Shown: piece by piece, positions 7,004-29,249 of the stretch
Layout: each line of letters begins with the position of its first letter
Position numbering within the stretch: position 1 is the stretch's first letter
From: a virus
Length of the DNA stretch: 35,208 bases
Strand: one strand, 5' to 3'
IMG/VR virus record: IMGVR_UViG_3300044712_001045
Coordinates: 1 to 35,208 of that record
The notes under the pieces: generated by a model
Databases searched by the model: none
Seen by the model: the letters and a program-made list of their open reading frames with translations, nothing else
Told to the model about the DNA's origin: nothing
Program-made: the position numbers and the translations under genes

Positions 7004-7008
7004 CGGTA

Positions 7009-7021
7009 GTATAGGCGGCAG
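7009..7021 (-). promoter_or_regulatory. Conserved element CTGCCGCCTATAC (copy 4), candidate late promoter
   Basis: The exact 12-mer CTGCCGCCTATA is shared with three other sites. It lies between the capsid terminator and ATG 7003. A degenerate inverted copy, CCTATATAGGTCGCCGCAG (minus strand), is at 7037-7055. Confidence 0.5.
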
Positions 7022-7050
7022 TCAGCAACAAACCCTGCGGCGACCTATAT

Positions 7051-7090
7051 AGGAAAAAAGAAGGGCCCCGGGGGAGGCAGCCCGGGGCCC
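7051..7090 (-). terminator. Intrinsic terminator downstream of the major capsid gene
   Basis: Minus strand reads GGGCCCCGGG-ctgcctcc-CCCGGGGCCC followed by TTCTTTTTTCC: a 10-bp GC stem, 8-nt loop and T tract, about 25 nt after the TAA at 7115. Confidence 0.8.
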
Positions 7091-7114
7091 TTGGGGCTGG
7101 AGCAGGTGGGAGGC

Positions 7115-8494
7115 TTAGAACACGACGACCGCGCAGTGGCCCGGCTCGTGGACCACGAAGTTCCCGTAGACGCTCATGGACACCTGGGCCGCGGGGCCCT
7201 CGACGCTGGTCGAGTTGGGGACGACGTTGAGGTAGTCGTCGATGATCATGCGGAAGCTGGTGTCGGGCTCGTTCTGGGCCTCGACGCTGGCGGCGCCGGG
7301 CTCGTTCTCAGCCGGCAGGCCCTCGTCCATCGGGCTCGTGTTGGACAGGGCGGCGAACTCCACCACCTCGCTGTCGATGATGTAGGCCGTGCCCTGCGGG
7401 CAGTAGGGGTCGTCCACCAGCTTGTCGAGCCACGAGGTCGAGAAGGCAAAGGCCATCTTCGACACGCCGCGCACGACCTGGTTGGGGCTGTTCTTGGCGC
7501 CCGCGGTGTTGACCTGCTGCATGTAGGCCGTCTGGGCGTGCAGCTCGCCGATGATGGTCATGTAGTCTTCGTCGTTGACCACGATCATGTCGGGCACACC
7601 GCCACCGCGGCGGGCAAGCTTGATGCCCTGGAGGAGGGCGTCGATCATCAGCTCGCCCGGCTGCCGGCGGTAGAACCACCCCGCGAGGCTGTTGGTGGAC
7701 ACCGACCGGGTCACGCCGTAGAAGGCGGTCCCGATGTAGGTCGTCCAGGTCGCGCCCGAGCGGTTGGCGATGCTGGGAATCCAGCCGGCGAACCCGGTGG
7801 GCATCGAGGCCGCGGGGGTGGCGTCACGCCCGCCCGCAAGCTCGATGATGGAGCCCGCAGCCCAGCCTCCGGCCGTGGCGCCGCCGCCCGTCCAGGTGAT
7901 CGTGTTTCCGTCGATGGCGCTCACGGTGCGGACGGTGGCGTCGTAGAAGGCCGAGGTCGGGGTCGCCCCGTTGGTGACGTAGAACTGGGTGCCGATGTCC
8001 AGCTTGACGATGGTGTCGGCGTTGAGGGTCGCCGTGGTGGCAGCCGCGGCAACCGCCGTCGGCAGGGCCCCGATGTCACCGCAGCCGAAGCCGAAGAGAC
8101 AGGCGGCGAAGGACTTGCGGGTGCCCTCGGTGGCGGCGAACATCTTGTTGACCAGCGGCTTGATGTAGGCGCCCTTGTTCCCGCCCCGGGAGGCGGCGAG
8201 GATTTCCTTCTGGGTCACGGTGAAGACCGTGTGGATGTTGCCGGGGACGACCGCCATCTCCGCGTTGCGGCTGGAGCTCGCGGCGTTGGCAACGGCCACG
8301 GTGTAGTCGCCCGAGGTCGCACCGCCGCGCCCGTAGAGCATGGCGATGTTGTAGGCGCGCCCGCCGACCCGGTTCTTCTGGATCTTCCGCAGTGTCGGCG
8401 AGTTGCGGAACAGAAGCTGCGGGAACCTCTTTTCGGTGTACCACGTCTTGTAGATCGAAACGAGGTTCGTGTCGCTGGTGACCTGCTGGGCCAT
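7115..8494 (-). CDS. Major capsid protein, 459 aa
   Basis: Size, position directly after a scaffold-like gene, GGAGAGAAC RBS, and a strong terminator immediately downstream. No homology search was run. Confidence 0.7.
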   Translation of the reverse strand: MAQQVTSDTNLVSIYKTWYTEKRFPQLLFRNSPTLRKIQKNRVGGRAYNIAMLYGRGGATSGDYTVAVANAASSSRNAEMAVVPGNIHTVFTVTQKEILAASRGGNKGAYIKPLVNKMFAATEGTRKSFAACLFGFGCGDIGALPTAVAAAATTATLNADTIVKLDIGTQFYVTNGATPTSAFYDATVRTVSAIDGNTITWTGGGATAGGWAAGSIIELAGGRDATPAASMPTGFAGWIPSIANRSGATWTTYIGTAFYGVTRSVSTNSLAGWFYRRQPGELMIDALLQGIKLARRGGGVPDMIVVNDEDYMTIIGELHAQTAYMQQVNTAGAKNSPNQVVRGVSKMAFAFSTSWLDKLVDDPYCPQGTAYIIDSEVVEFAALSNTSPMDEGLPAENEPGAASVEAQNEPDTSFRMIIDDYLNVVPNSTSVEGPAAQVSMSVYGNFVVHEPGHCAVVVF

Positions 8495-8503
8495 GTTCTC
8501 TCC

Positions 8504-9055
8504 TTAGTCTCGGGGCTCGCCCAGGATGCCAGGCACCCTGCCGCCCTTGCCTTTCATTGCCTTGATGCGCTGGACGATGGGAGCCGCGGGGTCTTCCTCC
8601 TCCTCGTCCTCTTTCTCGGGAGCCGCGTCCTTGGTGACTTCGACCGACACGGCGGCGGCAGGCTCGCCCTTGACCGCCTTGATCCGCTCGAGCAGATCCG
8701 CGGCGAGGGACTTCACCTTGCCGTCCACTTCCTCGTCAGCCACGCCGTCGAGCTCACCCATGAGGTTTTCCCAGAGGTCGCCCTTGTAGAGCTTCCCGTA
8801 GGCGTCGGCCGAGTCCTTGAAGAGGTCGGCGTACTTGCCCTTGAGGCCCTCGAGCTTCTCGAAGCGGGTGTTCTCTTCGTACAGCTTGGAGACCCCGCCG
8901 ATGAGCTCGTCCATGACGACGCGCTTGAGCTCGGCGAGCTCGCTGGCGAACTGCTGCAGGATCTCGGCCACCGTGCCGAACTTCTCCTCGCAGCCGCCGT
9001 GGTCGCCGCCCATGACTCCGTCCACTGTCGCCCTCTCTTCCGGCGTCAGATCCAC
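8504..9055 (-). CDS. Scaffolding protein, 183 aa
   Basis: Highly acidic, helical and low-complexity (EKEDEEEEDP). Sits immediately upstream of the capsid gene. Confidence 0.6.
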   Translation of the reverse strand: MDLTPEERATVDGVMGGDHGGCEEKFGTVAEILQQFASELAELKRVVMDELIGGVSKLYEENTRFEKLEGLKGKYADLFKDSADAYGKLYKGDLWENLMGELDGVADEEVDGKVKSLAADLLERIKAVKGEPAAAVSVEVTKDAAPEKEDEEEEDPAAPIVQRIKAMKGKGGRVPGILGEPRD

Positions 9056-9065
9056 GCCGCTACTC

Positions 9066-9734
9066 CTAGAACCCGTTCGGCGCCGGGATCTCGGCGAAGA
9101 TGAACGTGGTCCAGTACGTGGTCGAGGTCGCGATGGTCGATCCGAAGTGGATCGACGTGCCCGGGGGCAGGATCAGCTTGCCGTCGAAGTCGAAGTCGAA
9201 CCGGCTGTAGAGCTGCCCCGAGGCCGCGGTCCCTTCCAGGTGGTGGCCGAAGCCGAGGTCCATCAGCCTGGCCGGGTTGGTCGTGTAGGTGCTGACCGCC
9301 GGCGCAAACTTCGTGGTGGCGGCGGTGCCCTTGCCGAGCAGGAGGTTCGTCGGGGCCACGTTGGTCCAGGTGGCGATGGGTAGGCCCGTCGCGACGTTGG
9401 AGCCGGTGGAGGTCAGGTAGCCGAGGGTGAAGCCGTTGAGGATCGGCGTCCCGATGGCCCCGAGGGAGACCTGGATGGCGAGGGGGACGACGATCTTCCC
9501 GCTGTTCGCCGGGTTCCACAGCGACGGCGCGTTGGTGAGGGTCGTCGCGATGGGCACCGCGGCCGCAGCCGCCACGGGGGCGACGAAAACATACCCGCGG
9601 CGGGTGAGCTCGGTGTACTTCCCCCAGAACTGGGAGACTACCGCCTCGCCGTAGTTACCGCCGCGGACCGCACCGAAGCTGCCGTCGTTGCGAACCTGGT
9701 CGCCGGTCTGGCTCGTGTAGTTGATCACGTCCAT
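9066..9734 (-). CDS. Virion-associated hypothetical protein, paralog A, 222 aa
   Basis: Close paralog of 9744..10424; long identical blocks include VAPVAAAAAVPIATTLTNAPSLWNP and TTKFAPAVSTYTTNPARLMDLGFGHHLEGTAASGQLYS. AGGAGA RBS. Confidence 0.7.
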   Translation of the reverse strand: MDVINYTSQTGDQVRNDGSFGAVRGGNYGEAVVSQFWGKYTELTRRGYVFVAPVAAAAAVPIATTLTNAPSLWNPANSGKIVVPLAIQVSLGAIGTPILNGFTLGYLTSTGSNVATGLPIATWTNVAPTNLLLGKGTAATTKFAPAVSTYTTNPARLMDLGFGHHLEGTAASGQLYSRFDFDFDGKLILPPGTSIHFGSTIATSTTYWTTFIFAEIPAPNGF

Positions 9735-9743
9735 GATCTCTCC

Positions 9744-10424
9744 TTAGAACCCGTAGGCCGGCGCGGGGATCTCGGCGAAGATGAAGGTCGACCAGTAGGT
9801 GGTGCTGGTCGCGATGGTCGAGCCGAGGTGGATGCTCGTGCCGGGCGGCAGCATCAGCATCGAGTCGAAGTCGATGCTGAACTGCGAGTAGAGCTGGCCG
9901 CTGGCGGCCGTGCCCTCGAGGTGATGCCCGAAGCCCAGGTCCATGAGGCGGGCCGGGTTGGTGGTGTACGTGCTCACCGCGGGGGCGAACTTGGTCGTTG
10001 CCGTCCCGCCCTTGCCCAGCAGCAGGTTGGTGGGCGCCACGTTCGTCCAGGTGACGATGGGCGCCGCGGTCGCGATGGCCGACCCTGCGTTGGTGAGGTA
10101 GGACAGCGTGAACCCGTTGAGGATCGGGGTGCCGATGGCGCCGAGGGAGATGAGGATCTTCAGCGGCACAACCAGCTTGCCCGAGTCGGCGGGGTTCCAG
10201 AGGCTCGGGGCGTTGGTCAGGGTGGTGGCGATGGGGACCGCGGCGGCTGCGGCGACCGGGGCCACGTAGACGTAGCCGCGGCGCACCAGCTCGCCGTACT
10301 TGCCCCAGAACTGGGACGTGACAAGCTCGCCGTAGCTGCCACCGCGCAGGAGCTCCTGCGAACCGTCGCTCAGGTTGCGGGGCCCGATCTGCTGGGCTCG
10401 AAGGTCTATGCGGTACGAATCCAT
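9744..10424 (-). CDS. Virion-associated hypothetical protein, paralog B, 226 aa
   Basis: Internal ATG at 10424 preceded by AGGAGAAAAC. The N-terminal part of the longer track ORF overlaps 10433..11026 in another frame. Confidence 0.7.
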   Translation of the reverse strand: MDSYRIDLRAQQIGPRNLSDGSQELLRGGSYGELVTSQFWGKYGELVRRGYVYVAPVAAAAAVPIATTLTNAPSLWNPADSGKLVVPLKILISLGAIGTPILNGFTLSYLTNAGSAIATAAPIVTWTNVAPTNLLLGKGGTATTKFAPAVSTYTTNPARLMDLGFGHHLEGTAASGQLYSQFSIDFDSMLMLPPGTSIHLGSTIATSTTYWSTFIFAEIPAPAYGF

Positions 10425-10432
10425 GTTTTCTC

Positions 10433-11026
10433 CTACACCCGGCCCTTTTCGACTTCGGTCCACTCGAGGGTGACCCGAAGCTTCACGACGCCCGAGGCGC
10501 CCATGAGGATGAGGTTGTTGAGCACCAGGCCCTCCTCGGCGCGGAGGATGAGCGGGTGGGTCGAGTCGGTGATCCCGAACACCCAAGAGTTCTGGGTGAT
10601 GGTCGCGAGCGCCGCCGCACCGTAGCCGGCCGCAGCCCGCAGGGGCTGGGCGTCCAGCGTCCTGGTGCCGGCGGTGATGACGTCGGCGTCTCCGATGCGG
10701 ATGTCGGACATCAGCATGGTCGGGTGCAGGGTGTCGTGCTTGCCGTTGTTGGTGGTCAGGACGGCCGCGAGGCCGCCGGTGTCCGCCGCGGTGAACGACC
10801 GGGCGAAGTACAGGCCGTAGGCCAGGTCCTGCGCGGTGCCGAAGGCCGTGGTCGTGATCGCGCTGTAGCTGAAGCCGAACACCACCGCGACGTGGGTGGT
10901 GGAAGTCCAGCGGCACGACCATACGGGTCCGTTGGCTGCGACAGTCGTCAGAGACCCCGAGGGGATCTCCAGGCTGTAGTAGCCGCCCGCGGGGGCGATC
11001 TTCGAATACGGGGTTCTCAACGCCAT
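10433..11026 (-). CDS. Hypothetical virion protein, 197 aa, possibly a distant relative of paralogs A/B
   Basis: First gene after conserved element copy 3, with a GGGAGGGAG RBS. Its C-terminal pattern LILRAEEGLVLNN...LRVTLEWTEV loosely mirrors LILPPGTSIHFGS...TFIFAEI. Confidence 0.55.
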   Translation of the reverse strand: MALRTPYSKIAPAGGYYSLEIPSGSLTTVAANGPVWSCRWTSTTHVAVVFGFSYSAITTTAFGTAQDLAYGLYFARSFTAADTGGLAAVLTTNNGKHDTLHPTMLMSDIRIGDADVITAGTRTLDAQPLRAAAGYGAAALATITQNSWVFGITDSTHPLILRAEEGLVLNNLILMGASGVVKLRVTLEWTEVEKGRV

Positions 11027-11068
11027 TCCGTAACTCCCTCCCCTACTTCGGGGCGAACGTAGTTACAG

Positions 11069-11081
11069 ATATAGGCGGCAG
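11069..11081 (-). promoter_or_regulatory. Conserved element CTGCCGCCTATAT (copy 3), candidate late promoter
   Basis: Exact 12-mer in the 71-nt gap between 11098 (stop) and 11026 (start). Confidence 0.5.
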
Positions 11082-11097
11082 ATCGAGAGGACTTTTT

Positions 11098-11568
11098 CTA
11101 GAGGCTCAGGATTTCCAGCAGCTCGAGCTCCGCGGCCTCGACGGACTTCGTGGCGGCCTCGATGACAGCCTCTTCCTGGGCGGCGGTGAGCTCGGGCGCA
11201 CGGGGCGTCTTGGCCGTCACCTTGTCGATGGCCACGGCAACCTCGCGGGCCATCGTGGCAGGGGCTTCCCGGCGGGCCGTGGAGACCCGGCGCAGGAACT
11301 CGCGGTAGGCAGTGTCGGGGATGCGTATGGGGGCAGGCGGCGGCGTGGGAGCGGGGACAGGCTTTGCCTTCTTGCGCCGCTTCTTCTTCGGGCGGGCCAC
11401 ATCGCGCCAGGGGCCCCAGTCCCTCGTGTAGCCGCCGCTGATGGCGGGCACAAAGACAGGGATGGGAGCCCCCGAGGCGATGTCGAACCCGAAGCTGACG
11501 AACCGGACCCGCTCAGTGGAGTCGAGCCCGGCAGTCAGGGTGGTGGTGGAAAACTCGTCGAGCTTCAC
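11098..11568 (-). CDS. Hypothetical protein, 156 aa, with basic tract KKKRRKKAK
   Basis: GTG start overlaps the upstream TGA (GTGA). Coding-like composition. Confidence 0.55.
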   Translation of the reverse strand: MKLDEFSTTTLTAGLDSTERVRFVSFGFDIASGAPIPVFVPAISGGYTRDWGPWRDVARPKKKRRKKAKPVPAPTPPPAPIRIPDTAYREFLRRVSTARREAPATMAREVAVAIDKVTAKTPRAPELTAAQEEAVIEAATKSVEAAELELLEILSL

Positions 11569-13196
11569 GAGCCGGCCCCGAGCTCCTGGGTGGTGCCGTC
11601 GTCGCTCACCGTCCTGGTCGCAAGCACCGTGGCGCCGTCGGCCTTGTAGGTGAGCTGCTGCGCGGCGGTCTGGCTGTTGCGGTGGTAGAAGCGGCTGAAG
11701 ACCCAGTAGAGGAGGCTCTTCACCGACTTCGTGGCCGACAGGTTGGCAGGCTCGCTGATGGCAGCCTCGAGGGCCGCAGCCGTTGCCGTGGTCACGTCGC
11801 CACTGCTCAGGTCGTTGAGCCCGGTGATGTCCCCCTGGGACGCAGGGGTCGCCGGGAGGTTGTCGGTCTTCAGCTTGATGGCGTCCACCACCGTGTCCAC
11901 CGTCGCAACCGGGGCGTTGAGGTTGTCGCCCAGGATCTTACCCGCGGTCCCGGCGCCGTAGGCTCCCGGGAGGGCCGTGGACCACGGGTCGCCCGCCGTC
12001 CCCGCCGCGGCGAGAGCCGCGCCGGTGCTGCCGGCCCCGGCGTGCCCGGCGAGGGCCTCATCCCACACCGCGTCGGCAATCTCTGCCGATGCATCAGCCG
12101 CCAGGGCGTCGGCGTCGATGGCCCCAGTGGCGATGGCTGCGGCAGTGACTGCCCCGGCACCAAGAGCGGTCACGACTGGGATGGTGCAGTCGTTGGTGGC
12201 GAAGGCGAGGTCGTCGCCACCTGTGCCGCCCCTGGAGAGCATCAGGCCGCTGCTGTTCGCCCCCACGCCCTCGAAGTGGGCCCCGTGGCCGTTGGCCCCG
12301 CCACCCGCCGTGGCGTGGACGCCCTCGCCCGTTCCCGCACCGACGGCGTAGAGCCCGTGGCCGTTGCCCGCCCCGAGGCCCTCGATGCCCTCACCGGCGG
12401 TGGTCGCCACGCCCTTGATGCCCCCCGACTCGGTGGCTCCCTTGCCGACAGCCTGCAGGCCGTAGCAGTCCGCGGAGTTGGCCTCGGCGTAGATCCCGTA
12501 GCCGTTCGCCGTGGCACCGCCGACAGCCGAGATGCCGGCCCCCGAGGCGCCGCCGGTGGCCGCGATGCCCTTGCCGGTCCCGTTGCCGGTCACCACCAGG
12601 CCGCTGCCGTTGCCGCCCGTCGAGGACAGGGTGAGGGCCGACCCGCCCGAGCTGGTGATGGTCGTCGCCGCGTTGGTCCCGGCGATGAACACGCCCCCCG
12701 CCGCCCCGGCCGCAGCCGAGGGCAGGTAGTCGGTCTTGGTCTTGATGGCGTCCAGGTCGAGGCCCCCGGAGTCCGAGATCGGCAGTCCCCCGGCAGCATC
12801 GGCCGCGGCGTTGGGCAAAGCCGTGAGCCCCAGGCGCACGCCGTCGAAGGGGTCGTAGGTGACGAGCTGGATGTAGCAGCCGATGACCACCATGCCGGTG
12901 ACGGTGCCGTGCACGAGGACGCCGGTGGAGCTGGTGGCGCAGGCGGCGTCGGGGAGGTCGAGGCGGTAGTAGCCGTTGCCGATGTGCTTGAAGCCGCCGT
13001 CAGCGTGGGCTGAGTCGAGCCCGGCTAGGTCGGCCTCGGTGATGGCCGTGGAGGTCGCCCCCTCGCGGCGGTACTCAAGGGCGATGCCGCTGGTGTTGTA
13101 GACCACGCCGGTCTCGGGGGTGCCGTCTGTGCTGTCGATGATGCGGATGACCACGGAGACGTCCGTGGTGCCCGCCTTGCGTACCTGGCTGAACAT
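11565..13196 (-). CDS. Glycine-rich fibre protein, 543 aa
   Basis: Central G-x-G/Ala-rich repeats (GNGTGKGIAATGGASGAGISAVGG...). The motif IADAVWDEALAGHAGAGSTGAAL resembles segments I recall from phage fibre proteins. AGGGGG RBS. Confidence 0.65.
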   Translation of the reverse strand: MFSQVRKAGTTDVSVVIRIIDSTDGTPETGVVYNTSGIALEYRREGATSTAITEADLAGLDSAHADGGFKHIGNGYYRLDLPDAACATSSTGVLVHGTVTGMVVIGCYIQLVTYDPFDGVRLGLTALPNAAADAAGGLPISDSGGLDLDAIKTKTDYLPSAAAGAAGGVFIAGTNAATTITSSGGSALTLSSTGGNGSGLVVTGNGTGKGIAATGGASGAGISAVGGATANGYGIYAEANSADCYGLQAVGKGATESGGIKGVATTAGEGIEGLGAGNGHGLYAVGAGTGEGVHATAGGGANGHGAHFEGVGANSSGLMLSRGGTGGDDLAFATNDCTIPVVTALGAGAVTAAAIATGAIDADALAADASAEIADAVWDEALAGHAGAGSTGAALAAAGTAGDPWSTALPGAYGAGTAGKILGDNLNAPVATVDTVVDAIKLKTDNLPATPASQGDITGLNDLSSGDVTTATAAALEAAISEPANLSATKSVKSLLYWVFSRFYHRNSQTAAQQLTYKADGATVLATRTVSDDGTTQELGAGS

Positions 13197-13492
13197 GGCT
13201 ACCCCCTACTCACTGTGAGCCATCATCTGGCGAAGGATCGTCGTACCGCCCGCGGCCACGTACTGGTCGGCCCCGATGTCCCAGGTGCCGGTACGGGCGC
13301 GGTCAGGTGGAAGTCACCGGCGGCGGCGTTCGTGAACGCGAAGGTTTGCGAGGTGCGGTCGTTCGCGCCGCCAGTCGTCGTGCCCTTGTCGCTGCTGTTG
13401 TAGTTGCTCGAGGTCCAGGTGCCGGCGACGGTGTTGGCCGCGTTTGCGAAGATGCAGTCCACGGCGTAGATCGTGCCGCCGACGTAGTAGGC
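13149..13492. repeat. Tandem duplication unit 1 (344 bp), a degenerate copy of 13493..13912
   Basis: 13168-13298 is identical to 13512-13642 (131 nt). 13302-13492 aligns to 13722-13912 with 23 substitutions by hand alignment. It is a net 76 nt shorter than unit 2. Confidence 0.9.
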
Positions 13493-13540
13493 TACGACGC
13501 TGACGTCGGTCGTGCCCGCCTTGCGTACCTGGCTGAACAT
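13223..13540 (-). pseudogene. Chimeric remnant ORF, 105 aa: first 16 codons of the fibre gene fused to a frameshifted copy of the beta-helix gene 3' end
   Basis: MFSQVRKAGTTDVSVV is identical to the start of 11565..13196. YYVGGTIYAVD...AAGDFHLTA then parallels the C-terminus of 13550..14527. After the 76-nt deletion the frame is lost; the parental ending RTGTWDIGADQYVAAGGTTILRQMMAHSE appears only in another frame. Confidence 0.7.
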
Positions 13541-13912
13541 GGCTACCCCCTACTCACTGTGAGCCATCATCTGGCGAAGGATCGTCGTACCGCCCGCGGC
13601 CACGTACTGGTCGGCCCCGATGTCCCAGGTGCCGGTACGGGCCACCCGGTCGATGTCGTCGTCGAACTCACCAGACCCCGGGTCCGCCACCCCGTAGCCC
13701 TTGGCCCCGCCGTCCAGCGCCGTCAGGTGGAAGTCACCGGCGGCGGCGTTCGTGAACGCGAAGGTTTGCGAGGTGCGATCGTGTGCGCCTCCGGTGGTCG
13801 TGCCCTTGTCGCTGCTGTTGTAGTCGGGAGAAGTCCACGTCCCGGCGACGGTGTTGGCGGCGTTGACGAAGATGTTGTCCACGGCATAGATGGTGCCGCC
13901 AACGTAATACGC
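13493..13912. repeat. Tandem duplication unit 2 (420 bp): 3' end of the beta-helix gene, the intergenic RBS and 16 fibre-type codons
   Basis: See unit 1. The junction reads ...DVSVV|AYYVGG on the minus strand. Confidence 0.9.
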
Positions 13913-14527
13913 TGAGTTGTAGCCTCCAGAGAAGGTGCAACTCCAGATGTACATGCCGCCGCCGCCATTGAAGTACAGGCATGAATTGGCGGCGTGAGCA
14001 ACGGTCGTGCTGACGTTCCAGACGACGCAGTTGTACATGTAGACGGGGCGGGTGGTGCTCCCGGTCTCGTGGAAGACCGCACGGTCGCGGTAGGTCGATC
14101 CGCCCGTAGCCTTGAGGATGCAGTGGCGCATCGTGACCCTGGTGTTCGACGCCAGGTCCTGGAAGTATGCCACCACCCTGTAGTTGGCCGAGGGGTTGGT
14201 AACCTCTACCTGCAGGCCATCGACGACGAGGAACTCCTGGCTCATCGTGAGCGCATTCGCGTCGCTGACCTGCAGGAGGTATTTGCCGGTGTCCCACTTG
14301 CCTCCGTGAAACGTCGTGGAAGTGGTGCGGATCTCGATCCAGTGGGTCGAGTTGGTGGTGGACCCGTCAACGGTGACGGCGGTCGTGTCGGTGAAGTTGC
14401 CCGTGATCTCCCACGTTCCGTACTTGTCGCCGGTGACGTAGTCCTGCTGCTCGCCTGCCTCGCAGGCCGACAGCGAGGTATAGTCCGCTCCGCTGCTGGC
14501 GATGGTGGCCTTGTCCTCGGTTGCCAC
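13550..14527 (-). CDS. Right-handed parallel beta-helix protein, 325 aa (tailspike/depolymerase-like)
   Basis: Repetitive beta-rich sequence. The C-terminal DFHLT...G.G.......DIDRVARTGTWDIGADQY is typical of pectate-lyase-fold beta-helix proteins. GTG start shares one base with the upstream TAG. Confidence 0.6.
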   Translation of the reverse strand: MATEDKATIASSGADYTSLSACEAGEQQDYVTGDKYGTWEITGNFTDTTAVTVDGSTTNSTHWIEIRTTSTTFHGGKWDTGKYLLQVSDANALTMSQEFLVVDGLQVEVTNPSANYRVVAYFQDLASNTRVTMRHCILKATGGSTYRDRAVFHETGSTTRPVYMYNCVVWNVSTTVAHAANSCLYFNGGGGMYIWSCTFSGGYNSAYYVGGTIYAVDNIFVNAANTVAGTWTSPDYNSSDKGTTTGGAHDRTSQTFAFTNAAAGDFHLTALDGGAKGYGVADPGSGEFDDDIDRVARTGTWDIGADQYVAAGGTTILRQMMAHSE

Positions 14528-14937
14528 TACAGGGCCTCCGTCTCAGCGAGCCCGGTCTTCTGGTTGATCAGGTACGCCCGCACCTGGGCCCAGGTGTAGT
14601 CCCCCGTTGCCCCGATGGTGAGGACGCCGGTGTTGACGAGCTTGTTGCGGGCGGCGGCCGGCATCGAGGCGATGGCAAACTTCCACACCCGGCGCCGGGA
14701 GCGCACCACCTTCCCGTCGTCATCGCGGGTAGAGTCCTCGATGATGTACTTGAGCACCTTGGAGACCGACACCCCCGGGAGCTTGATGATGTAGAACCGG
14801 GGCAGCCCCTCGCGCGCGCCCCACGGGTGCCCGTCGGGCTGCACCACCACGGGCATCCCGCGCTTGTAGCAGCCCCGCTGGTCCACCGTGGTGTCGGCAT
14901 GGGTGGCGTCGGCGGCCTTGACGAGGATCTCAGCCAA
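14527..14937 (-). CDS. Hypothetical protein, 136 aa
   Basis: High third-position GC. TTG start overlaps the portal stop by 8 nt, so the start is uncertain. Confidence 0.5.
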   Translation of the reverse strand: MAEILVKAADATHADTTVDQRGCYKRGMPVVVQPDGHPWGAREGLPRFYIIKLPGVSVSKVLKYIIEDSTRDDDGKVVRSRRRVWKFAIASMPAAARNKLVNTGVLTIGATGDYTWAQVRAYLINQKTGLAETEAL

Positions 14938-16984
14938 GGGGCACCTCGGGTTCCTGCGTCTGCACCGTCTCCACGATCTGACCCGTCTCGTCCCTCACGA
15001 GCTGCGTCACCGTCTGCCGCGGCGGAGCGGCCTCCTCGGTGGTGATGGTCTTGACGATCTGCCCCGCCTCGTCGCGCACGAGCTGCGTGGTCTTCTTCTT
15101 GGCCGGGGCTGCAGGCTCAGGCGGCAGCGGAGGCTGCGGGTGCGTGATGACGTGCACCTCGATGGGGATGGGAGGCGTCGGCACCGGCGGCGGGGGCGGC
15201 TCCACGGGTGGCGGGGCCGCGGGCGGGGCGGGCGGGGGCGCCATAGCCTCGGGCGGCGGGGGCATGGGCCCCGGCACCGGCTCAGGCGGCATCGGGGGCG
15301 CCATCGTCTGGTTCACCGTGTCCAGCTTGCCTTTGACGATGACGATTAAGTTGACCAGGCGGTCGAGCACCTCGGGGTCTTCTTCGTTGGCGTCCAGGCG
15401 CAGGAGGGTGTTGACCGCCTCCCCGAAGAGCTGCTGGATGTTCACCACCTCGTAGAAGTCGAACTCACCCTTCTCCACCGCCCGCTCGATGATCTTCTGG
15501 CAGTAGTCGTAGGACGAGGAGGTGATGGAGTAGGCGCCCTCGAGGTCGGGGAACTCCAGGATACTGGAGGCCATCGCGGGGTTGATGATCTGCATGTTGA
15601 TGAGCTTCTCCACCTGCTCCATCTTGACCTTGGGGTCTTTGGACAGGGAGCTGCTTGCGGAGAACTGGATTGAGAAGCTCTCGTGCTCGCGCTTGATGTC
15701 GGCCCACTTGATCTGCGCCCGGGACCGCCGGCGGGGAAGCACGTCCTCGCCCTTGGGGAACACCTCGATGGCGATCTTGGCGACCTCCATCAGCAGGCGG
15801 ATGAATGACTGGAGGATGGGGTTGTGGCGCTCGCTCTCCACGTCCTCCACCGTCTGCAGGGCAACGCCCGAGTTGATGCCCGAGGGCTTCTTCGCCTGGG
15901 CGGAAAGCTGGGAGATCCCCAGCATCTCGTAGCCGGTGCGTATCCAGAACTCCAGGAACTTGATGTACGACGGGTCTATGGGCTGCGGGGTTGAGACGAA
16001 CACCCCCGCCTCGGCCCCCGGGACCGGGCGGTACTTGTACACCGCCCCGATCTCGCTGGAGAGAGCAGACGCCTTCACCTCCGACCCCTCGGGCACCCAG
16101 ATGGTGTTGGCAGGCGACAGCTCCAGGGCCAGGTGGATGCGCTCGCAGAGGCTGTCTATCTGGGCCTGCACCGTGTACAGGTCGTCAGCCATCGCCACGC
16201 TGAAGGCACCCTTGAGGGGCTCCTCCCGGTACAGGGTGGCGACTGGGGGGATGGTGTATTCGATGTCGTCCTCGCCGATGAGGCGGGTGTCGGCGAAGGT
16301 GTACTTCTTCCCCTCCAGCAGGTCGAAGTAGATGGCCCGCTCCACCTTGGCTGCAGGGTCTAGGTCGAGGCGTTGCACTAGGGCGTCCTCGCTGTTGTCG
16401 TGCGCCCCGTTCCACTCCTCCAGCCGAGCCTTGAGGGCGATCAACGGGAACTGCTTCTGGATGATGAAACACCGGCTGATGTGCCCGTAGTGGAACTCGG
16501 CAGCGTCGAAGTAGTACTCCCACGGGGCCAGGCGCTTGATGCGGCGGTCCTCGTCGTCCACCCAGAGGTGGCCCACCTCGAACACATCGGCGTAGCGCAC
16601 CGTCTGGATGGCCTTGCGGTAGACGTCCTGGTCCTCGAAGAACTCGTCGAAGTAGATCTGCGCGTTGCGGCAGACCTTGCGGGTCTTGAAGGTACCGACG
16701 ATGGGGTTGAAGAAGGGTCGGACCTTGACCTCGGAGAGCTTGCTGACGTGCGTGTCGATGGCGCTCCTGATGACGTTGATGTTGGGGACGGTGCCCGTGT
16801 CCTCCCCGGCGTTTGTGTCGTGGTAGGACAGGGCGTTGCCGTACTGCTCGCGGATGTCCTCGGAGCGGCGCCCGTTGTTGGCGTAGCGGTTGAAGTTGCG
16901 CCGCCACTTGGGGAACCGCTTCTGCAGGGCGCTGGTGAGGGTCTGCATGTCACGGCGCACGAACTGCTCGCGTTTGGCGTCCAT
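14930..16984 (-). CDS. Portal protein, 684 aa, with a proline-rich C-terminal extension
   Basis: Size and position shortly downstream of the large terminase. The C-terminal ~150 aa is Pro-rich (PPPPEAMAPPPAPPAAPPPVEPPPPPVPTPP) and is followed by a duplicated TQLVRDExGQIVxT motif. Confidence 0.65.
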   Translation of the reverse strand: MDAKREQFVRRDMQTLTSALQKRFPKWRRNFNRYANNGRRSEDIREQYGNALSYHDTNAGEDTGTVPNINVIRSAIDTHVSKLSEVKVRPFFNPIVGTFKTRKVCRNAQIYFDEFFEDQDVYRKAIQTVRYADVFEVGHLWVDDEDRRIKRLAPWEYYFDAAEFHYGHISRCFIIQKQFPLIALKARLEEWNGAHDNSEDALVQRLDLDPAAKVERAIYFDLLEGKKYTFADTRLIGEDDIEYTIPPVATLYREEPLKGAFSVAMADDLYTVQAQIDSLCERIHLALELSPANTIWVPEGSEVKASALSSEIGAVYKYRPVPGAEAGVFVSTPQPIDPSYIKFLEFWIRTGYEMLGISQLSAQAKKPSGINSGVALQTVEDVESERHNPILQSFIRLLMEVAKIAIEVFPKGEDVLPRRRSRAQIKWADIKREHESFSIQFSASSSLSKDPKVKMEQVEKLINMQIINPAMASSILEFPDLEGAYSITSSSYDYCQKIIERAVEKGEFDFYEVVNIQQLFGEAVNTLLRLDANEEDPEVLDRLVNLIVIVKGKLDTVNQTMAPPMPPEPVPGPMPPPPEAMAPPPAPPAAPPPVEPPPPPVPTPPIPIEVHVITHPQPPLPPEPAAPAKKKTTQLVRDEAGQIVKTITTEEAAPPRQTVTQLVRDETGQIVETVQTQEPEVPLG

Positions 16985-17244
16985 CAGTACAGCACCTCTC
17001 CATCGGCGCCGCGGTTGCGGGCCTGTCTGTCCTTGAACCTGTCAAAGGGGTCTTCCCGCCGGATGTCGAAGGCCGTCCCGTCCTTGAACGTGACGTGCAC
17101 CACCACGTCGTGCTGGGCCGTGTTGATGAGGTCGCGGATGATGGTGTAGTTGACCTCGGTCCCCACCAGGGCCTCGTACTGGCGCTTCTTGCGCTCCTGC
17201 TCGCGGATCACCCTGTAGGCAGCCAAAAGCTGGCTCACGATCAC
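16984..17244 (-). CDS. Hypothetical protein, 86 aa
   Basis: GTG 17244 with GAGGGG upstream. Its stop overlaps the portal ATG (TGATG). Confidence 0.5.
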   Translation of the reverse strand: MIVSQLLAAYRVIREQERKKRQYEALVGTEVNYTIIRDLINTAQHDVVVHVTFKDGTAFDIRREDPFDRFKDRQARNRGADGEVLY

Positions 17245-17260
17245 GGTTGAACCCCTCTAT

Positions 17261-17273
17261 GTATAGGCGGCAG
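17261..17273 (-). promoter_or_regulatory. Conserved element CTGCCGCCTATAC (copy 2), candidate late promoter
   Basis: Exact 12-mer starting immediately after the TGA at 17274-17276, 17 nt upstream of GTG 17244. Confidence 0.45.
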
Positions 17274-17579
17274 TCACCTGCCCACGACGTGCAGCCCCGA
17301 GGGCGGCAGGGTGAGGCCGGTGAGCTCGCTCTTGATGGACGCCAGCAGCTCGGCGTCGTCGCAGTCGTGGTACATCAGGATGCCGTGCCACGGGACGTGC
17401 AGGGTCGCCATCTTCCAGGGCGTCTTGTCGGCCCGGACGATCTGGAAGTCCACCTTCCCGCCCTTGCCCTGCACCGGCTGAAGGAAGACGCTCTCCCTCG
17501 CCTCGAATGAAACAGTGGTCTCGGAGACCCGCTCGGTCGCCGAGTACAGCATCAGCCCGCCTGCCAGTTGGTACAGCAC
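17274..17579 (-). CDS. Hypothetical protein, 101 aa
   Basis: GTG start shares one base with the terminase TAG. Confidence 0.5.
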   Translation of the reverse strand: MLYQLAGGLMLYSATERVSETTVSFEARESVFLQPVQGKGGKVDFQIVRADKTPWKMATLHVPWHGILMYHDCDDAELLASIKSELTGLTLPPSGLHVVGR

Positions 17580-19198
17580 TACTCCACTCCCCTTTTTCGT
17601 GTGAACATCCAGATGGGTCTCATCGCGTAGGTGACGGCGTCCATCAGATCCGGGTGGTAGGTCTCATCGTCAACCTCGCGGGTGAGCTCGTCGCGTTCGT
17701 TCCGCAGGAACACCGTCTTCATGCACTCGTCCGCCAGGGCCCCGTCCCTGCGGACCTTGAGGTGCCCGCGGCGGCAGTCGTCCTGCAGCAGCTCCACGGC
17801 CATGTCCTTGTTGGCCTTGTAGGCGTCCTGGATGGGCAGGCCCTTGAGGGACAGGTCGTAGGCGGTCTTCTTCCCGCCGCCCCCGGTGTCTGAGTAGATC
17901 TGGAACTTCCTCGACTCCAGCCTGGCGAACAGGGGCGAGGTCTCCACGTACTGGATGCCCGCCCTGACGGCATCGCAAAGCTCGTCGGTTCCGGTGCGCC
18001 GGGCCTTGTACTCCCACACCACCCAGGACTCGGGGCGCTTGGGGTCGGTGGAGTAGCAGACGATGGCAAACCCGTCAGCGTCCTCGAACCCGAAGTCGAG
18101 CCCCGCCTCGAAGCGGACATCGGTCACCGGCTGGCTGGCGATCCAGGCCGCCAGGTCGTCGTCGGTGAAGTAGTTCGCCTCCGTGAGCCGCAGCACGAGG
18201 GCGTCGTCGTCGTAGGCGATCCGCCCCAGGTACTCCCGCACGTACAGGGGCGAGGTCTCCGACAGGCCCTTCTCCTCGCGGATGCGGGTCAACTCCGTCT
18301 GGTAGTCGGCGATGAACGGGTTTTCGGCGATGCTCCAGTTTAGCCGGTACGCCTTGAACTTGTTGCTGTCCGACCACCGATAGTCCCAGTGGGTGCCCCG
18401 CACCCGCGGCCCCGTCCCGGCCAGGAGCAGGGTGCCCTTTCGGTCGATGAGGGTCGGGTAGATCACGTCCTCGATGAGGTAGGCGAGCTGCCCCTGGGAC
18501 TGGCACTCGTCGATGGCGACCACGTCCCACTGGAACCCGCGCTGCTTCTCCCGCTCCTCGGTGCTGCTGTTGCCGCCGAAGTGGATCTCCGCCCCGTTGT
18601 CCAGCACCAGGCGCCCCTCGACCCGGCTGCGCTCGGCGACCTTGTAGCCCAGCTCCTCGAGCAGGTTGACCACCGGCTGCCACATCAGGTCCATCGCCTT
18701 CGTGATGGTCTTGCCGATGTACAGGCACCGTGCCCGGTCCTTGCGGACGATGGTCTCGCCGAAGTACAGGGCCACGCCCTCGGTCTTGCCCGCCCGCCGC
18801 CCGGCCATGAGCTGGATCTCGCGCTCGTGGCACCACACGAATGCCCGCTGCTGGGCGTGGGCCCGCTGCCAGATGCGGTAGGACTTGAAGTCGGTATCCT
18901 CCCTGTCCTTGCGGGCGAGCACCTTGTCGATCTGGTCAAGGATGTCGTCGCCAAACAGGGTGGAGGCCATCTTCTGGGCCTGCCAGGAGCCCGGCTTGTC
19001 CCTGGCATACTCGGCGAAGGTGCGGACGTAGTCCCTGATGAACGTGGCGTCGTGCAGCAGCTCCCCCACGACGACGTTGCGGAGGTGGGTGACGGACTGC
19101 TCGTTGCGGGGCCGGCCCGGGCTCTTGGGCGCCTGTCCCTTGAGGAAGGGTCTCCCTCGTGGCTTTTTGGGGCTTTCAGCTTGGCTTTTCACGCTCAC
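17579..19198 (-). CDS. terL: Terminase large subunit, 539 aa
   Basis: Walker A-like LMAGRRAGKTEG, typical size, and a portal-sized gene downstream. The start is GTG 19198 or GTG 19192, just downstream of conserved element copy 1. Confidence 0.8.
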   Translation of the reverse strand: MSVKSQAESPKKPRGRPFLKGQAPKSPGRPRNEQSVTHLRNVVVGELLHDATFIRDYVRTFAEYARDKPGSWQAQKMASTLFGDDILDQIDKVLARKDREDTDFKSYRIWQRAHAQQRAFVWCHEREIQLMAGRRAGKTEGVALYFGETIVRKDRARCLYIGKTITKAMDLMWQPVVNLLEELGYKVAERSRVEGRLVLDNGAEIHFGGNSSTEEREKQRGFQWDVVAIDECQSQGQLAYLIEDVIYPTLIDRKGTLLLAGTGPRVRGTHWDYRWSDSNKFKAYRLNWSIAENPFIADYQTELTRIREEKGLSETSPLYVREYLGRIAYDDDALVLRLTEANYFTDDDLAAWIASQPVTDVRFEAGLDFGFEDADGFAIVCYSTDPKRPESWVVWEYKARRTGTDELCDAVRAGIQYVETSPLFARLESRKFQIYSDTGGGGKKTAYDLSLKGLPIQDAYKANKDMAVELLQDDCRRGHLKVRRDGALADECMKTVFLRNERDELTREVDDETYHPDLMDAVTYAMRPIWMFTRKRGVE

Positions 19199-19413
19199 CT
19201 ATATAGGCGGCAGAGGGCGTGCGTCATGCGCTTGGTGGCTGCCCGCAGGCCCTCCCGGTGCTCCCGGTCCCACCGCTGCAGCCACCGCTGCCGCCAGCGG
19301 GGGAAGGGCTGGGTGTACCACGGCGCCCGACGCAGGCGGCGGGCCTGCTTGTCCACCACGCCCTCAATGCGGCGAGCCTCGGCCCGGGCGGCCTTGATCT
19401 TCTTGCCGCTCAT
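19195..19413 (-). CDS. Small basic protein, 72 aa (possible small terminase or regulator)
   Basis: Very high third-position GC. ATGA overlap with the upstream stop and GTGA overlap with the terL start. Arg/Trp-rich. Confidence 0.55.
   Translation of the reverse strand: MSGKKIKAARAEARRIEGVVDKQARRLRRAPWYTQPFPRWRQRWLQRWDREHREGLRAATKRMTHALCRLYR
19201..19213 (-). promoter_or_regulatory. Conserved element CTGCCGCCTATAT (copy 1), candidate late promoter upstream of terL
   Basis: Exact 12-mer embedded in the last codons (ALCRLYR*) of the small basic ORF. TATAT ends 2 nt before GTG 19198 and 8 nt before GTG 19192. Confidence 0.5.
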
Positions 19414-19682
19414 TCCAGCAGCTCCCACCACGTCGGCGAGGTCGCTGGCGGGTTGCCGGCGTTGCCGTCCTGCAGGCTGACGTAGGTGTTGATCCCGGCA
19501 AATGGGACGGGGTAGTCGGCGCTCCTGACGAACGCCTTCTGCCCAGCGGCGAACTCCCAGCGGGCGTCCCAGATCATGAACTCCGGGAACGTCACCGTGA
19601 TGCGGACGTCGCCTGTCGGCGGGTCCACCGGGGCGTAGCAGCCCGCCAGCAGCAGGGCCGCGGCCATGATGAGGCACCTCAT
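19410..19682 (-). CDS. Lipoprotein, 90 aa
   Basis: MRCLIMAAALLLAGC has a canonical lipobox L-A-G-C. ATG 19682 overlaps the TGA of the Zn-ribbon ORF (ATGA). The upstream extension of the track ORF is non-coding-like. Confidence 0.65.
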   Translation of the reverse strand: MRCLIMAAALLLAGCYAPVDPPTGDVRITVTFPEFMIWDARWEFAAGQKAFVRSADYPVPFAGINTYVSLQDGNAGNPPATSPTWWELLE

Positions 19683-19831
19683 TCCTTGAATCCCCCTTCC
19701 CGCAACGGCGGACCTTCGGTCTCGTAGCACTTGTCGCAGAGCCACACCTTCTCGCCCGTCTTGGGCCACACCAGCTCGCGGGTGGCTTCCTGGCGCTTGC
19801 AGCACTCACACCTGGGGCGGCTTGCCATCAT
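19679..19831 (-). CDS. Zn-ribbon protein, 50 aa (below the ORF-track size cut-off)
   Basis: MMASRPRCECCKRQEATRELVWPKTGEKVWLCDKCYETEGPPLREGGFKE has two CxxC pairs. GGGGAGG RBS, high third-position GC, and an ATGA overlap with the lipoprotein gene. Confidence 0.6.
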   Translation of the reverse strand: MMASRPRCECCKRQEATRELVWPKTGEKVWLCDKCYETEGPPLREGGFKE

Positions 19832-19988
19832 CGTCCTCCCCTATCTCGCAGAAGCCTCGAAGCAGCTCTTCGACGACTCCGCTGAAGGTAAGTCGGTGTC
19901 CCGGGGTGCTGTACTCCTTGCACTGCCTCTTCACCTCTGCTACGATGTCCGCATCCAGCGTCATCGAAACCGTTGTCTTGTGCGACAC
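19806..19988 (-). CDS. Ribbon-helix-helix (CopG/Arc-like) DNA-binding protein, 60 aa
   Basis: KTTVSMTLDADIVAEVKRQ...FSGVVEELLRGF fits a strand-helix-helix pattern. GGAGGAGG RBS lies 4 nt before GTG 19988. Third-position GC is about 75 percent by hand count. Confidence 0.65.
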   Translation of the reverse strand: MSHKTTVSMTLDADIVAEVKRQCKEYSTPGHRLTFSGVVEELLRGFCEIGEDDDGKPPQV

Positions 19989-20541
19989 GCAACCTCCTCC
20001 TCGTGAGCTTCCAGACGTACCTCAACTTGACCGCATGGTCGTAGACCCACCGCCTCGAGGCGACCGCCGTGACCGCCGTGATGGCCTTGCGGTAGGTGGT
20101 GCCCCGCACCAGGGCGAGCACGATCTCCTGCCCGCGGTCGTGGTCGTCCACCAGGTCCTGCAGGTAGGTCGATGGATCTCCGTCGCTGCGGGCGCTGACC
20201 ATGGCGGGGATCTCCGGCGACAGGGCCTCGGCCCGGTGGATGAAGCGCCACGTCGGCCTGTCCCCGTCGCCGCCCTCGGTGAAAGCGTGGAGCACCTCCA
20301 GGCGCACCACGGGGGCGAAAGACCGGATGACGTAGCGGTCGTGCCTCAGGTAACGCTCGATGATGCGGGACGCCGAGTCGTGGGCGAGTTGCTCCACGCG
20401 CTCCCGGTCCATCGCCACGCTGGACTGCCGGGCTAGGCACCAGCAGACCGGTCGGGCCATGTCAATGAACCCCTGGTACAACTCCCCAAGGGCTCCCCTG
20501 TCGCCTCGGTGGTAGCGGGCCTGGATGTCGTAGATGTTCAA
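19828..20541 (-). CDS. Sigma-70-family-like protein, 237-aa ORF (candidate late-gene regulator); the last ~54 codons overlap the RHH gene out of frame
   Basis: The N-terminus ARYHRGDRGALGELYQGF...VEQLAHDSASRIIERY resembles sigma region 2. TTYRKAITAVTAVASRRWVYDHAVKLRYVWKL resembles a region 4 HTH. TTG start overlaps the rusA-like stop (TTGA). This is a weak by-eye assignment. Confidence 0.4.
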   Translation of the reverse strand: MNIYDIQARYHRGDRGALGELYQGFIDMARPVCWCLARQSSVAMDRERVEQLAHDSASRIIERYLRHDRYVIRSFAPVVRLEVLHAFTEGGDGDRPTWRFIHRAEALSPEIPAMVSARSDGDPSTYLQDLVDDHDRGQEIVLALVRGTTYRKAITAVTAVASRRWVYDHAVKLRYVWKLTRRRLRVAQDNGFDDAGCGHRSRGEEAVQGVQHPGTPTYLQRSRRRAASRLLRDRGGR

Positions 20542-24185: not shown

Positions 24186-24550
24186 CCCACACCTCCCATC
24201 CTGATGATGCGCCCGTCCCTGGGCTCCTCGTGCGCCGTCACCAGCCCCATCGCCCGGGCTGCCAGGTCTGCCGCCCTGCCCCGCATGGTGGCGTTGGCGT
24301 CCTTGAGGGCGACCAGCTCCTGCCGCAGCTCACGCATGGCGACCCTCGCAGCTTCGATGTGCGCCTCGGCAACAACAAGCCGCTGGCGCAGGGCAGGCTC
24401 GGCAGCAGCCGCCCCGCGGTCCCATGCCCGCCGCCGGGCGATGGGGAGCCACACCAGCAGGGCAGCCACGGCAGCGGCGAGCAGGATGCAGGCGGCGACG
24501 AGCCACACGGGCTCGAGGCGCCAGGTGGACTCGAGGATGATGGGGGTCAT
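24182..24550 (-). CDS. Membrane-anchored coiled-coil protein, 122 aa
   Basis: N-terminal TM segment PVWLVAACILLAAAVAALLVWLPI followed by a helical region. ATG 24550 overlaps the helicase-MTase stop (ATGA). Confidence 0.5.
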   Translation of the reverse strand: MTPIILESTWRLEPVWLVAACILLAAAVAALLVWLPIARRRAWDRGAAAAEPALRQRLVVAEAHIEAARVAMRELRQELVALKDANATMRGRAADLAARAMGLVTAHEEPRDGRIIRMGGVG

Positions 24551-29219: not shown

Positions 29220-29249
29220 TTTATAGCACGGTGAAGTTGCCTTTGTCAA
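29220..29249 (-). promoter_or_regulatory. Sigma70-type early promoter TTGACA-18 nt-TATAAA, predicted to give a leaderless RHH mRNA
   Basis: On the minus strand, TTGACA is at 29249-29244 and TATAAA at 29225-29220, with 7 nt (CCTAAGT) to ATG 29212 and no SD. The local AT-rich island contrasts with the GC-rich genome. Confidence 0.55.

Follow-up and report, generated by a model that had tools for sequence, protein, structure and literature searches.

An uncultivated phage genome carries four exact copies of a 12-nt element, CTGCCGCCTATA, all on the coding strand of its late genes, and we propose, with a probability of roughly 0.6, that this element is the phage's late promoter: a -10-region element without a -35 element, read by core RNA polymerase (RNAP) together with a sigma-like factor that the phage itself would encode. 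The genome is IMG/VR virus record IMGVR_UViG_3300044712_001045, analyzed over its whole stretch of 35,208 nt (positions 1 to 35,208, hereafter the window). An earlier note on this DNA had suggested a phage-specific late promoter lacking a -35 element, and among the readings compared below this is the one that best fits the shared gene junctions, the position of a terminator, the 6 to 9-nt spacing to start codons, and the conserved neighboring gene.

A 12-nt repeat at the junctions of late gene blocks

An exact search of the whole genome found exactly four copies of CTGCCGCCTATA and no others, all on the minus (coding) strand. Dinucleotide-preserving shuffles gave a mean of 0.01 matches, and none of 100 shuffles reached four copies. 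The repeat is thus real and not a product of chance, in agreement with the earlier note, which had reported four identical same-strand 12-mers beyond chance expectation. Allowing two mismatches added just three near-matches, which lie on the plus strand and are unrelated. The base that follows the 12-mer is T, C, T, and C at the four copies, the pyrimidine that had been described before. In this genome of 66% GC, the coding strand contains TATA at only 11 positions, six of which fall in the motif sites or in an element beside copy 4. The copies are confined to positions 7010-19213; none lies at 19.8-35 kb, that is, in the early region.

19195..19413, minus strand: 72-aa open reading frame (ORF), very basic and rich in G and C at third codon positions (GC3); its stop overlaps GTG 19198
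19202..19213, minus strand: motif copy 1, CTGCCGCCTATA, within the last five codons of the 72-aa ORF, before TerL
17579..19198, minus strand: TerL, first gene of the late block, likely start GTG 19192
17262..17273, minus strand: motif copy 2, directly after TGA 17276-17274 of a 101-aa gene
11070..11081, minus strand: motif copy 3, heading a block of three paralogs, scaffold, and capsid
7061..7092, minus strand: intrinsic terminator with a 12-bp stem (10 GC pairs) and a T-run, closing the capsid transcription unit
7044..7053, minus strand: CCTATATAGG, a TATA-containing element just past the terminator and about 30 nt upstream of the CTA of copy 4
7010..7021, minus strand: motif copy 4, between the capsid terminator and an adaptor-like gene

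Copies 2 to 4 lie at gene boundaries, as had been claimed for all four. Copy 1, previously placed in a gap upstream of terL, instead falls within the end of the 72-aa ORF, whose last codons (TGC CGC CTA TAT AGG TGA, encoding C R L Y R and the stop) make up the copy. Because it forces the use of CTA (2.7% of Leu codons in this genome) and TAT (3.9% of Tyr codons), which are among the rarest codons, the DNA motif constrains the 72-aa protein and not the reverse. The motif is identical whether it is coding, as here, or intergenic. From the end of its CTA, the distance is 11 nt to GTG 19192 and 5 nt to GTG 19198; comparison of N termini with relatives favors GTG 19192 as the likely start of TerL.

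The TGA at 17276-17274 confirms that copy 2 directly follows a stop codon. This copy heads the block of an 86-aa gene and the portal gene, with a Shine-Dalgarno-like AGAGGGG and GTG 17244 located 17 nt downstream. Copy 3 lies 16 nt past a TAG stop (11100-11098) and 43 nt ahead of ATG 11026. Copy 4 lies where the earlier note had put it, between the capsid terminator (7092-7061), which is the only strong intrinsic terminator in the genome, and ATG 7003 of the 477-aa adaptor-like gene. Here, the CTA ends 8 nt and the TATA 6 nt from the start codon, a leaderless geometry.

The region between the terminator and copy 4 had been described as holding a degenerate inverted copy at 7037-7055. Its true span is 7053-7035, and it is better described as the palindromic CCTATATAGG element, with which the supposed inverted copy starts and which also contains a direct CCTATA. 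Equivalents of CCTATATAGG occur in four related contigs (L006, L009, L018, and L013; see below), and CCTATATAGG could serve as an upstream element or as the core of a weak tandem promoter.

Examination of the sequence upstream of the four copies revealed no conserved -35-like hexamer, as noted earlier, and a search of this genome and its high-GC relatives found no -35 element at a fixed distance. We rejected canonical sigma-70 promoters (TTGACA, 16-18 nt, TATAAT) as an account of the repeat, since a scan finds none in positions 1-20000 and the copies have no common -35. Literature searches for the motif turned up nothing relevant. A one-mismatch copy on the opposite strand, at 4519-4530, lies inside a repeat of a tail-fibre-like gene and is probably a chance match.

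Variants of the element in related phages

The earlier note had proposed a search for the motif at equivalent junctions of related genomes. Such relatives, given L-numbers here, are metagenome contigs found via TerL, which has more than 200 metagenomic homologues. The closest contigs are L004, L005, and L006, with TerL sequences 72, 72, and 68% identical to that of this genome, and scanning metagenome contigs with an alignment of TerL sequences added 80 further loci. Variants of the motif appear at the corresponding four junctions, namely before TerL, after the small gene that follows TerL, after the portal gene, and after the capsid terminator, in a family whose GC content ranges from 35 to 66%.

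The close relatives carry the variants CTGACGCCTATAT, CCGCCTATATAGG, and GCGCCTATAGG at junctions matching those of this genome. In L004, GACGCCTATAT occurs three times (0.01 expected), before TerL, after a 100-aa gene, and after the portal gene. L005 has CCGCCTATATAGG at the first two junctions, and the variant CCGCCTATA is found in L005 and L029. The four copies of GCGCCTATAGG in L006 (0.00 expected) lie before TerL, after a 102-aa gene, after the portal gene, and after the capsid terminator, the last of them ending 7 nt ahead of the ATG of the adaptor-like gene. More distant contigs have repeated elements of their own:

L013, 56% GC: TGACTATAT, 4 copies (before TerL, before the portal gene, before the paralog block, and after the capsid gene)
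L035, 35% GC: CATAACTATATAT, 5 copies
L039, 41% GC: GTATACTATA, 4 copies
L015, 40% GC: TACTATATA, 5 copies
L019, 42% GC: ATGACTATATATA, 3 copies
L024, 61% GC: GCTACTATA, 3 copies
L040, 55% GC: GCGTCTATA, 3 copies
L009, 62% GC: CCTATATAGGTGA, 2 copies
L018, 60% GC: CACCTTATA, 2 copies

An exact count of nnnnCTATA overlooks variants such as CACCTTATA in L018 and AGCCTATATAGG in L009, and a crude search for k-mers enriched between genes across all loci gave too much noise in high-GC genomes to serve as a statistic. The sites syntenic with each copy are as follows:

Copy 1 (before TerL): L004, L005, L006, L029, L013, and L035
Copy 2: L004:5112, L005:5355, L006:2012, L013:11696, and L035:11590
Copy 3: L004:7405 (which has the flanks TAGAAAAAsTCCTCTC...CTATATCTGT in common with copy 3), L006:4266, and L013:13504
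Copy 4: L006:8329, L009:12767, L013:18338, L018, L024, L040, L015, L028, and L035

The repeated elements of the relatives are always on the gene strand. Their nCTATA core is constant and the bases 5' of it are specific to each genome (CTGCCGC, TGACGC, GCGC, TGA, CATAA, GCTA, GCGT), so that CTGCCGCCTATA consists of the family-wide core nCTATA and the seven bases CTGCCGC particular to this genome. In this genome and in L004, L005, L006, L013, L019, L023, L024, L035, and L040, a start codon follows 6-9 nt past CTA at the junction of TerL or of the adaptor-like gene, and at other sites, a Shine-Dalgarno sequence lies a few bases further downstream. Four low-GC relatives also have GTATAC (or GTATAG) 17-18 nt upstream of CTA, giving a bipartite, -35-like arrangement at these positions:

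L035: 9955, 13653, and 15720
L015: 10926 and 16654
L019: 6526
L028: 10217 and 15937

This upstream element is not present in this genome or its high-GC relatives. The high-GC clade has a TATA-rich element about 30 nt upstream, only at the post-terminator junction. Compared across these contigs, the motif is positionally conserved, with a fixed core and fast-changing specificity bases, throughout an uncultivated phage lineage.

Two of the gene blocks that follow the copies have features of their own. The three paralogs behind copy 3 (9066-11026, about 200-225 aa each) stand ahead of scaffold and capsid; positions 9078-9377 and 9759-10058 are 79% identical, the triplet is kept in L006, and homologues are found in L004, L009, L013, and L018. 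Between the portal gene and copy 3 lies a block of five genes (11098-14937) with no homologue in the fetched relatives (0 loci by tblastn) and with internal duplications 88-91% identical (13129-13298 with 13473-13642, and 13297-13493 with 13717-13913). It looks like a recent insertion into what would be the second late transcription unit.

A two-domain, sigma-like protein is encoded beside the late genes

Upstream of copy 1, the gene order is a 237-aa ORF, a ribbon-helix-helix (RHH) gene, a gene for a 50-aa Zn-ribbon protein, a small lipoprotein gene, and the 72-aa basic ORF.

19828..20541, minus strand: sigma-like ORF, 237 aa, with a conserved core of about aa 1-183 (roughly 19990-20541)
19806..19988, minus strand: RHH (CopG/Arc-like) gene with its own GGAGG Shine-Dalgarno sequence, conserved in close relatives only
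19679..19831, minus strand: 50-aa Zn-ribbon protein (CxxC...CxxC) with a weak DUF7685 match

Among 1.8 billion representative proteins, a profile search identified 138 homologues of the 237-aa ORF (cluster representatives at 50% identity). Because most of these are 180-190 aa long, the functional protein is probably about 183 aa. The last 160 nt or so (about 55 codons) of the ORF overlap the RHH gene out of frame; the RHH frame is the real one there, judging by GC content at each codon position, the dedicated GGAGG, and the fact that L004 and L005 conserve the RHH peptide. The RHH Shine-Dalgarno sequence is itself encoded by conserved AGG AGG AGG (RRR) codons of the sigma-like ORF, in L004 and L005 alike, and a +1 frameshift fusing the sigma-like and RHH proteins is possible.

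Using a hidden Markov model built from 111 homologues, we detected the sigma-like gene in 27 genomes including this one. In all 27, the gene and TerL share a strand, and the end of the gene lies 0-2.2 kb upstream of TerL. Homologues of the RHH, Zn-ribbon, and 72-aa genes were detected in only three to five close-relative loci, and the early module is not conserved among the relatives that share the motif. With so few loci against a family-wide motif, these three genes cannot explain it.

An AlphaFold2 model computed from the 111-sequence alignment (predicted local distance difference test score, 82) has a four-helix domain at residues 1-89, a low-confidence linker, and a domain of four to five helices at residues 123-189. 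Foldseek comparison with the PDB placed sigma factors at most of the top ranks, led by ShbA (probability 0.99, target-normalised TM-score 0.57); other matches were Mycobacterium tuberculosis SigH and SigL, AlgU, RpoE, BldN, the N-terminal domain of SigE, and the phiEco32 sigma complex (9m7y_F). The top matches in BFVD were a phage "Sigma70-ECF" (probability 0.97) and an RNA polymerase sigma factor (probability 0.92). At the sequence level, TIGR02937 or Sigma70_r2 gave faint matches in two to three of the 111 family members. The predicted fold and the genomic context point, if weakly, to a very divergent sigma factor resembling the extracytoplasmic function (ECF) group.

Two observations concern the surroundings of this gene. 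In the more distant contigs L054, L055, L076, L053, L069, and L070, the sigma-like profile picks up two separate short ORFs ahead of TerL (E values from 1e-5 to 1e-13), and the factor may be split in two or much reduced there. The lipoprotein gene at 19410-19682, between the Zn-ribbon gene and the 72-aa ORF, has an LLAGC lipobox (MRCLIMAAALLLAGC) and no homologue in any relative by tblastn; it could be a superinfection-exclusion or lysis-related gene.

Co-occurrence of the element and the sigma-like gene

Twelve loci with at least 2.5 kb of sequence upstream of TerL have no sigma-like gene. In those inspected among them (L027, L037/L038, and L048), the TerL junction has a terminator with a TTGACA-type promoter downstream of it, and a CTATA repeat is absent. 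Where both the gene and the adaptor junction are present, 11 of 12 genomes have a CTATA- or TTATA-type site at that junction. In this small sample, the comparison points the right way, toward co-variation of the motif and the sigma-like gene.

Genome layout, early promoter, and host type

The first and last 127 bases of the window (1-127 and 35082-35208) are 100% identical, so we regard the genome as a circularly closed assembly of 35,081 bp. GC3 analysis places essentially all genes on the minus strand. The late region spans the closure point, where a 680-aa Ala/Gly-rich ORF (33099-35141) follows the gene at 190-1167, both on the minus strand. Other ORFs include a 747-aa DEAD/ResIII-type helicase fused to a C-terminal N6/N4 DNA methyltransferase with CcrM-like motifs (24547-26790), and a 1201-aa tail-fibre-like ORF (1980-5585) with seven tandem repeats at 4121-5006, mostly 126 nt (42 aa) apart and 62-80% identical. 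No tRNAs were found in the genome.

29220..29249, minus strand: canonical sigma-70-type promoter, TTGACA (29249-29244), 18 nt, TATAAA (29225-29220)

The TATAAA of this promoter, which escaped the consensus scan because position 6 of its hexamer is A, ends 7 nt before ATG 29212 of a 61-aa ORF. It is probably the early promoter, giving a leaderless mRNA, and its canonical form indicates that the host is a bacterium with ordinary sigma-70 promoters. Megablast of 20 kb of the genome matched no cultured phage, and in tblastn, TerL matched cultured phages only at below 31% identity (a Halorubrum virus and Rhizobium phages). When reference genomes were scanned with TerL peptides, no relative turned up, and hence no prophage or host clue. 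The Halorubrum virus match raised the idea that the element is an archaeal B recognition element (BRE)/TATA promoter. We rejected this because start codons with conserved N termini lie 5-9 nt past TATA, and because of the hairpin-plus-T-run terminator, the TTGACA-N18-TATAAA promoter, and the LLAGC lipobox.

A proposed late promoter read by a putative phage sigma-like factor

In the mechanism we favor, the element would be recognized by the host core RNAP with the phage's own divergent ECF-like sigma (gene from 20541 to about 19990), which would itself be expressed at an earlier stage, from sequence lying upstream of copy 1. Four late transcription units would then be driven by the four copies: TerL and the 101-aa gene from copy 1; the 86-aa gene, the portal gene, and the genome-specific gene block from copy 2; the three paralogs, scaffold, and capsid, up to the terminator, from copy 3; and the adaptor-like and tail genes from copy 4. 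If transcription starts 6-9 bp past CTA, as in the experimentally mapped promoters of phages phiEco32 and 7-11, the adaptor-like gene and probably TerL would have leaderless or nearly leaderless mRNAs, and the second and third units would have short leaders with Shine-Dalgarno sequences.

The placement of the element is promoter-like because a copy lies directly past the only strong terminator and because start codons follow 6-9 nt after CTA. That the sigma-like protein is the factor reading it is plausible. More tentatively, and at somewhat short of an even chance, the 183-aa family may be an unrecognised, extremely divergent sigma branch confined to one widespread lineage of uncultivated phages of about 35 kb. 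Each phage would then have its own nnnn-CTATA promoter variant, giving natural, mutually orthogonal sigma/promoter pairs of both single-element and bipartite (GTATAC-N17-CTA) type, active in hosts of 35 to 66% GC.

Several points weigh against this interpretation. The protein has a sigma-4-like domain though this genome shows no -35 element. TATA also opens a host-type -10 hexamer, and the early promoter itself has CTATAA. In L035, a Shine-Dalgarno sequence begins 4-5 nt past CTATA, which is awkward for a start 6-9 nt downstream. As to the identity of the protein, the Foldseek E-values are just 0.03-1 and the global TM-scores about 0.3, the latter being expected for two domains in arbitrary orientation. 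The protein has no Pfam, PHROGs, or NCBIfam match even at E = 10, and the family profile finds nothing in these libraries or among PDB sequences. A comparison with RpoE by hhalign gave a probability below 2%, obtained with a single sequence and with an alignment of RpoE orthologues that, at 86-100% identity, is too narrow for a fair test. Finally, L061 has the sigma-like gene yet no CTATA at its adaptor junction, and the co-variation rests on three inspected gene-less genomes only.

Alternative readings of the element

An unlikely but serious alternative is that the host primary sigma factor reads the element as a late promoter, with TATAnn as the -10 hexamer and a phage activator on CTGCCGC that replaces the -35 contact. 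Candidates for this activator are the RHH protein, the Zn-ribbon protein, and the two-domain "sigma-like" protein, which would then work by binding DNA. TATA does supply the first four bases of TATAAT, the early promoter of this genome uses CTATAA/TATAAA, one GCGTCTATACT site in L040 has a perfect TTGACA 17 nt upstream, and the sigma identity of the neighboring protein is based on fold and context. As a hexamer, however, TATAnn has T at position 6 (-7) in only one of the four copies, the other three reading TATATA, TATACA, and TATATC, and it would put ATG 7003 just 4 nt downstream, which is too close. The conserved bases also abut TATA (at about -19 to -13), an unusual position for an activator. 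As for the RHH or Zn-ribbon protein as the reader of the sites, which the earlier note had proposed, homologues of the two were detected in only four to five loci, far fewer than carry the motif.

We consider it quite improbable that the 12-mer is an operator or roadblock akin to the stoperators of Cluster A mycobacteriophages, bound by a phage repressor such as the RHH protein. Points in favor of this reading are the asymmetry of the site, its single orientation relative to transcription, its recurrence at several gene boundaries, and an RHH DNA-binding protein encoded just upstream. RHH proteins, however, normally bind repeated or symmetric half-sites and the 12-mer is single and asymmetric; moreover, the RHH gene was detected in five loci only while most relatives have the motif. 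The sites number just four and are confined to the late block, with none near early promoters, and domain searches of the genome's proteins detected no integrase or immunity repressor. A roadblock would also leave the 6 to 9-nt spacing to start codons and the post-terminator position unexplained.

A little less probable still is a signal acting at the RNA level (CUGCCGCCUAUA), either for RNase processing of a long late transcript or for enhancing or coupling translation, which the earlier note had raised as its alternative. The copies do lie on the sense strand at cistron boundaries, and two of them overlap or touch a stop codon. Against this, they have no common structure: the fold z-scores of 0 to 1.3 are no better than those of shuffles, the context differs from site to site, and Rfam families have no match in the genome. 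The next start codon is anywhere from 5 to 43 nt away in this genome, which is wrong for a translation signal, and little read-through RNA would carry copy 4, located past a strong terminator. Genome-specific 5' bases next to a fixed CTATA suggest a co-evolving protein-DNA pair and not a site for a host RNase.

A promoter for a single-subunit (T7-like) or other phage RNAP, in which CTATA would melt and transcription start right after it (as in T7 CACTATA/GGGAGA), is very improbable: the element resembles T7, SP6, and K11 promoters (CACTATAG), L006 has CCTATAGGGGTGA, low-GC relatives have AACTATATATAAGGAGA, and a start immediately after TATA would retain the Shine-Dalgarno sequence of L035, but domain searches detected no RNA polymerase among the genome's proteins, inspection of the large ORFs (TerL, portal, helicase-methylase, repeat-rich tail, and the Ala/Gly-rich 680-aa ORF of structural type) found no RNAP domain and no DFDGD-type motif, the early module is not conserved among motif-sharing relatives, the base after TATA is T, C, T, and C and not G, and the element is only 12 nt long.

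Significance

With this interpretation, an unannotated metagenomic phage gains a readable transcription plan, comprising one canonical early promoter, a regulatory cassette (the sigma-like, RHH, and Zn-ribbon genes), four putative late promoters, and one terminator, and a whole environmental phage lineage appears to share that plan. Should the 183-aa protein prove to be a sigma factor, the sigma-70 family would extend into sequence space past the reach of current profile libraries, many natural orthogonal sigma/promoter pairs would become available for synthetic biology, and related viral contigs could be annotated more readily for late promoters and leaderless genes. Otherwise, motif and protein would still, as a conserved pair, define a new late-gene regulator.

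Comparison with known systems

The proposed strategy is already known in kind; library and literature searches returned no match for the motif, the family of the protein, or the lineage of the phage, all of which appear to be undescribed. The T7-group RNAP promoters are similar in having a CTATA core after a specificity region that differs between related phages. They differ in length, about 23 nt versus 12 nt here, and in their +1 G, which the sites here do not have, and no phage RNAP gene was found among the large ORFs of this genome.

Cluster A mycobacteriophage stoperators (the L5 gp71 sites) occur about 20-30 times per genome, across both arms, as targets of the immunity repressor of temperate phages. 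Like the element described here, they are asymmetric, 12-13 bp long, located at gene boundaries, and set in one orientation relative to transcription. In this genome, by contrast, there are four late-only sites with promoter-like spacing to start codons, and domain searches found no repressor or integrase.

The late promoters of T4 read by gp55 are TATAAATA, an 8-nt motif with no genome-specific extension. In T4, gp33 and the sliding clamp gp45, which acts as a mobile enhancer, are required as well, and gp55 consists of a sigma-2-like part alone. The resemblance, already drawn in the earlier note, lies in AT-rich, -10-only late promoters served by a very divergent phage sigma factor, here putative; gp33 and gp45 counterparts were not found in this genome.

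Two further phages offer the nearest parallels. In phiEco32, an Escherichia coli podovirus, six gp36-dependent promoters have a single element, tAATGTAtA, with transcription starting 6-8 bp downstream (PMC8948821). The likeness is in the single conserved -10-region element without a -35, placed upstream of middle and late blocks, and in a divergent phage-encoded sigma, which is putative here; the phiEco32 complex 9m7y_F is among the Foldseek matches of the 183-aa protein. The consensus here is instead CTGCCGC-CTATA, the two proteins have no detectable sequence homology, the 183-aa protein has a sigma-4-like C-terminal domain whereas gp36 is said to have none, and no co-factor like gp79 was identified in this genome.

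Salmonella phage 7-11 has eight gp47-dependent promoters, GTAAtg-(16)-aCTA, with transcription starting 6-9 bp downstream (PMC8948821). Phage family and host differ, the proteins have no detectable similarity, and this genome lacks a -35-like element, with seven conserved bases abutting CTATA instead. The two systems nevertheless agree in the nCTA core and in the distance to start codons, and the bipartite GTATAC-(16/17)-nCTA sites of the low-GC relatives closely resemble the 7-11 consensus.

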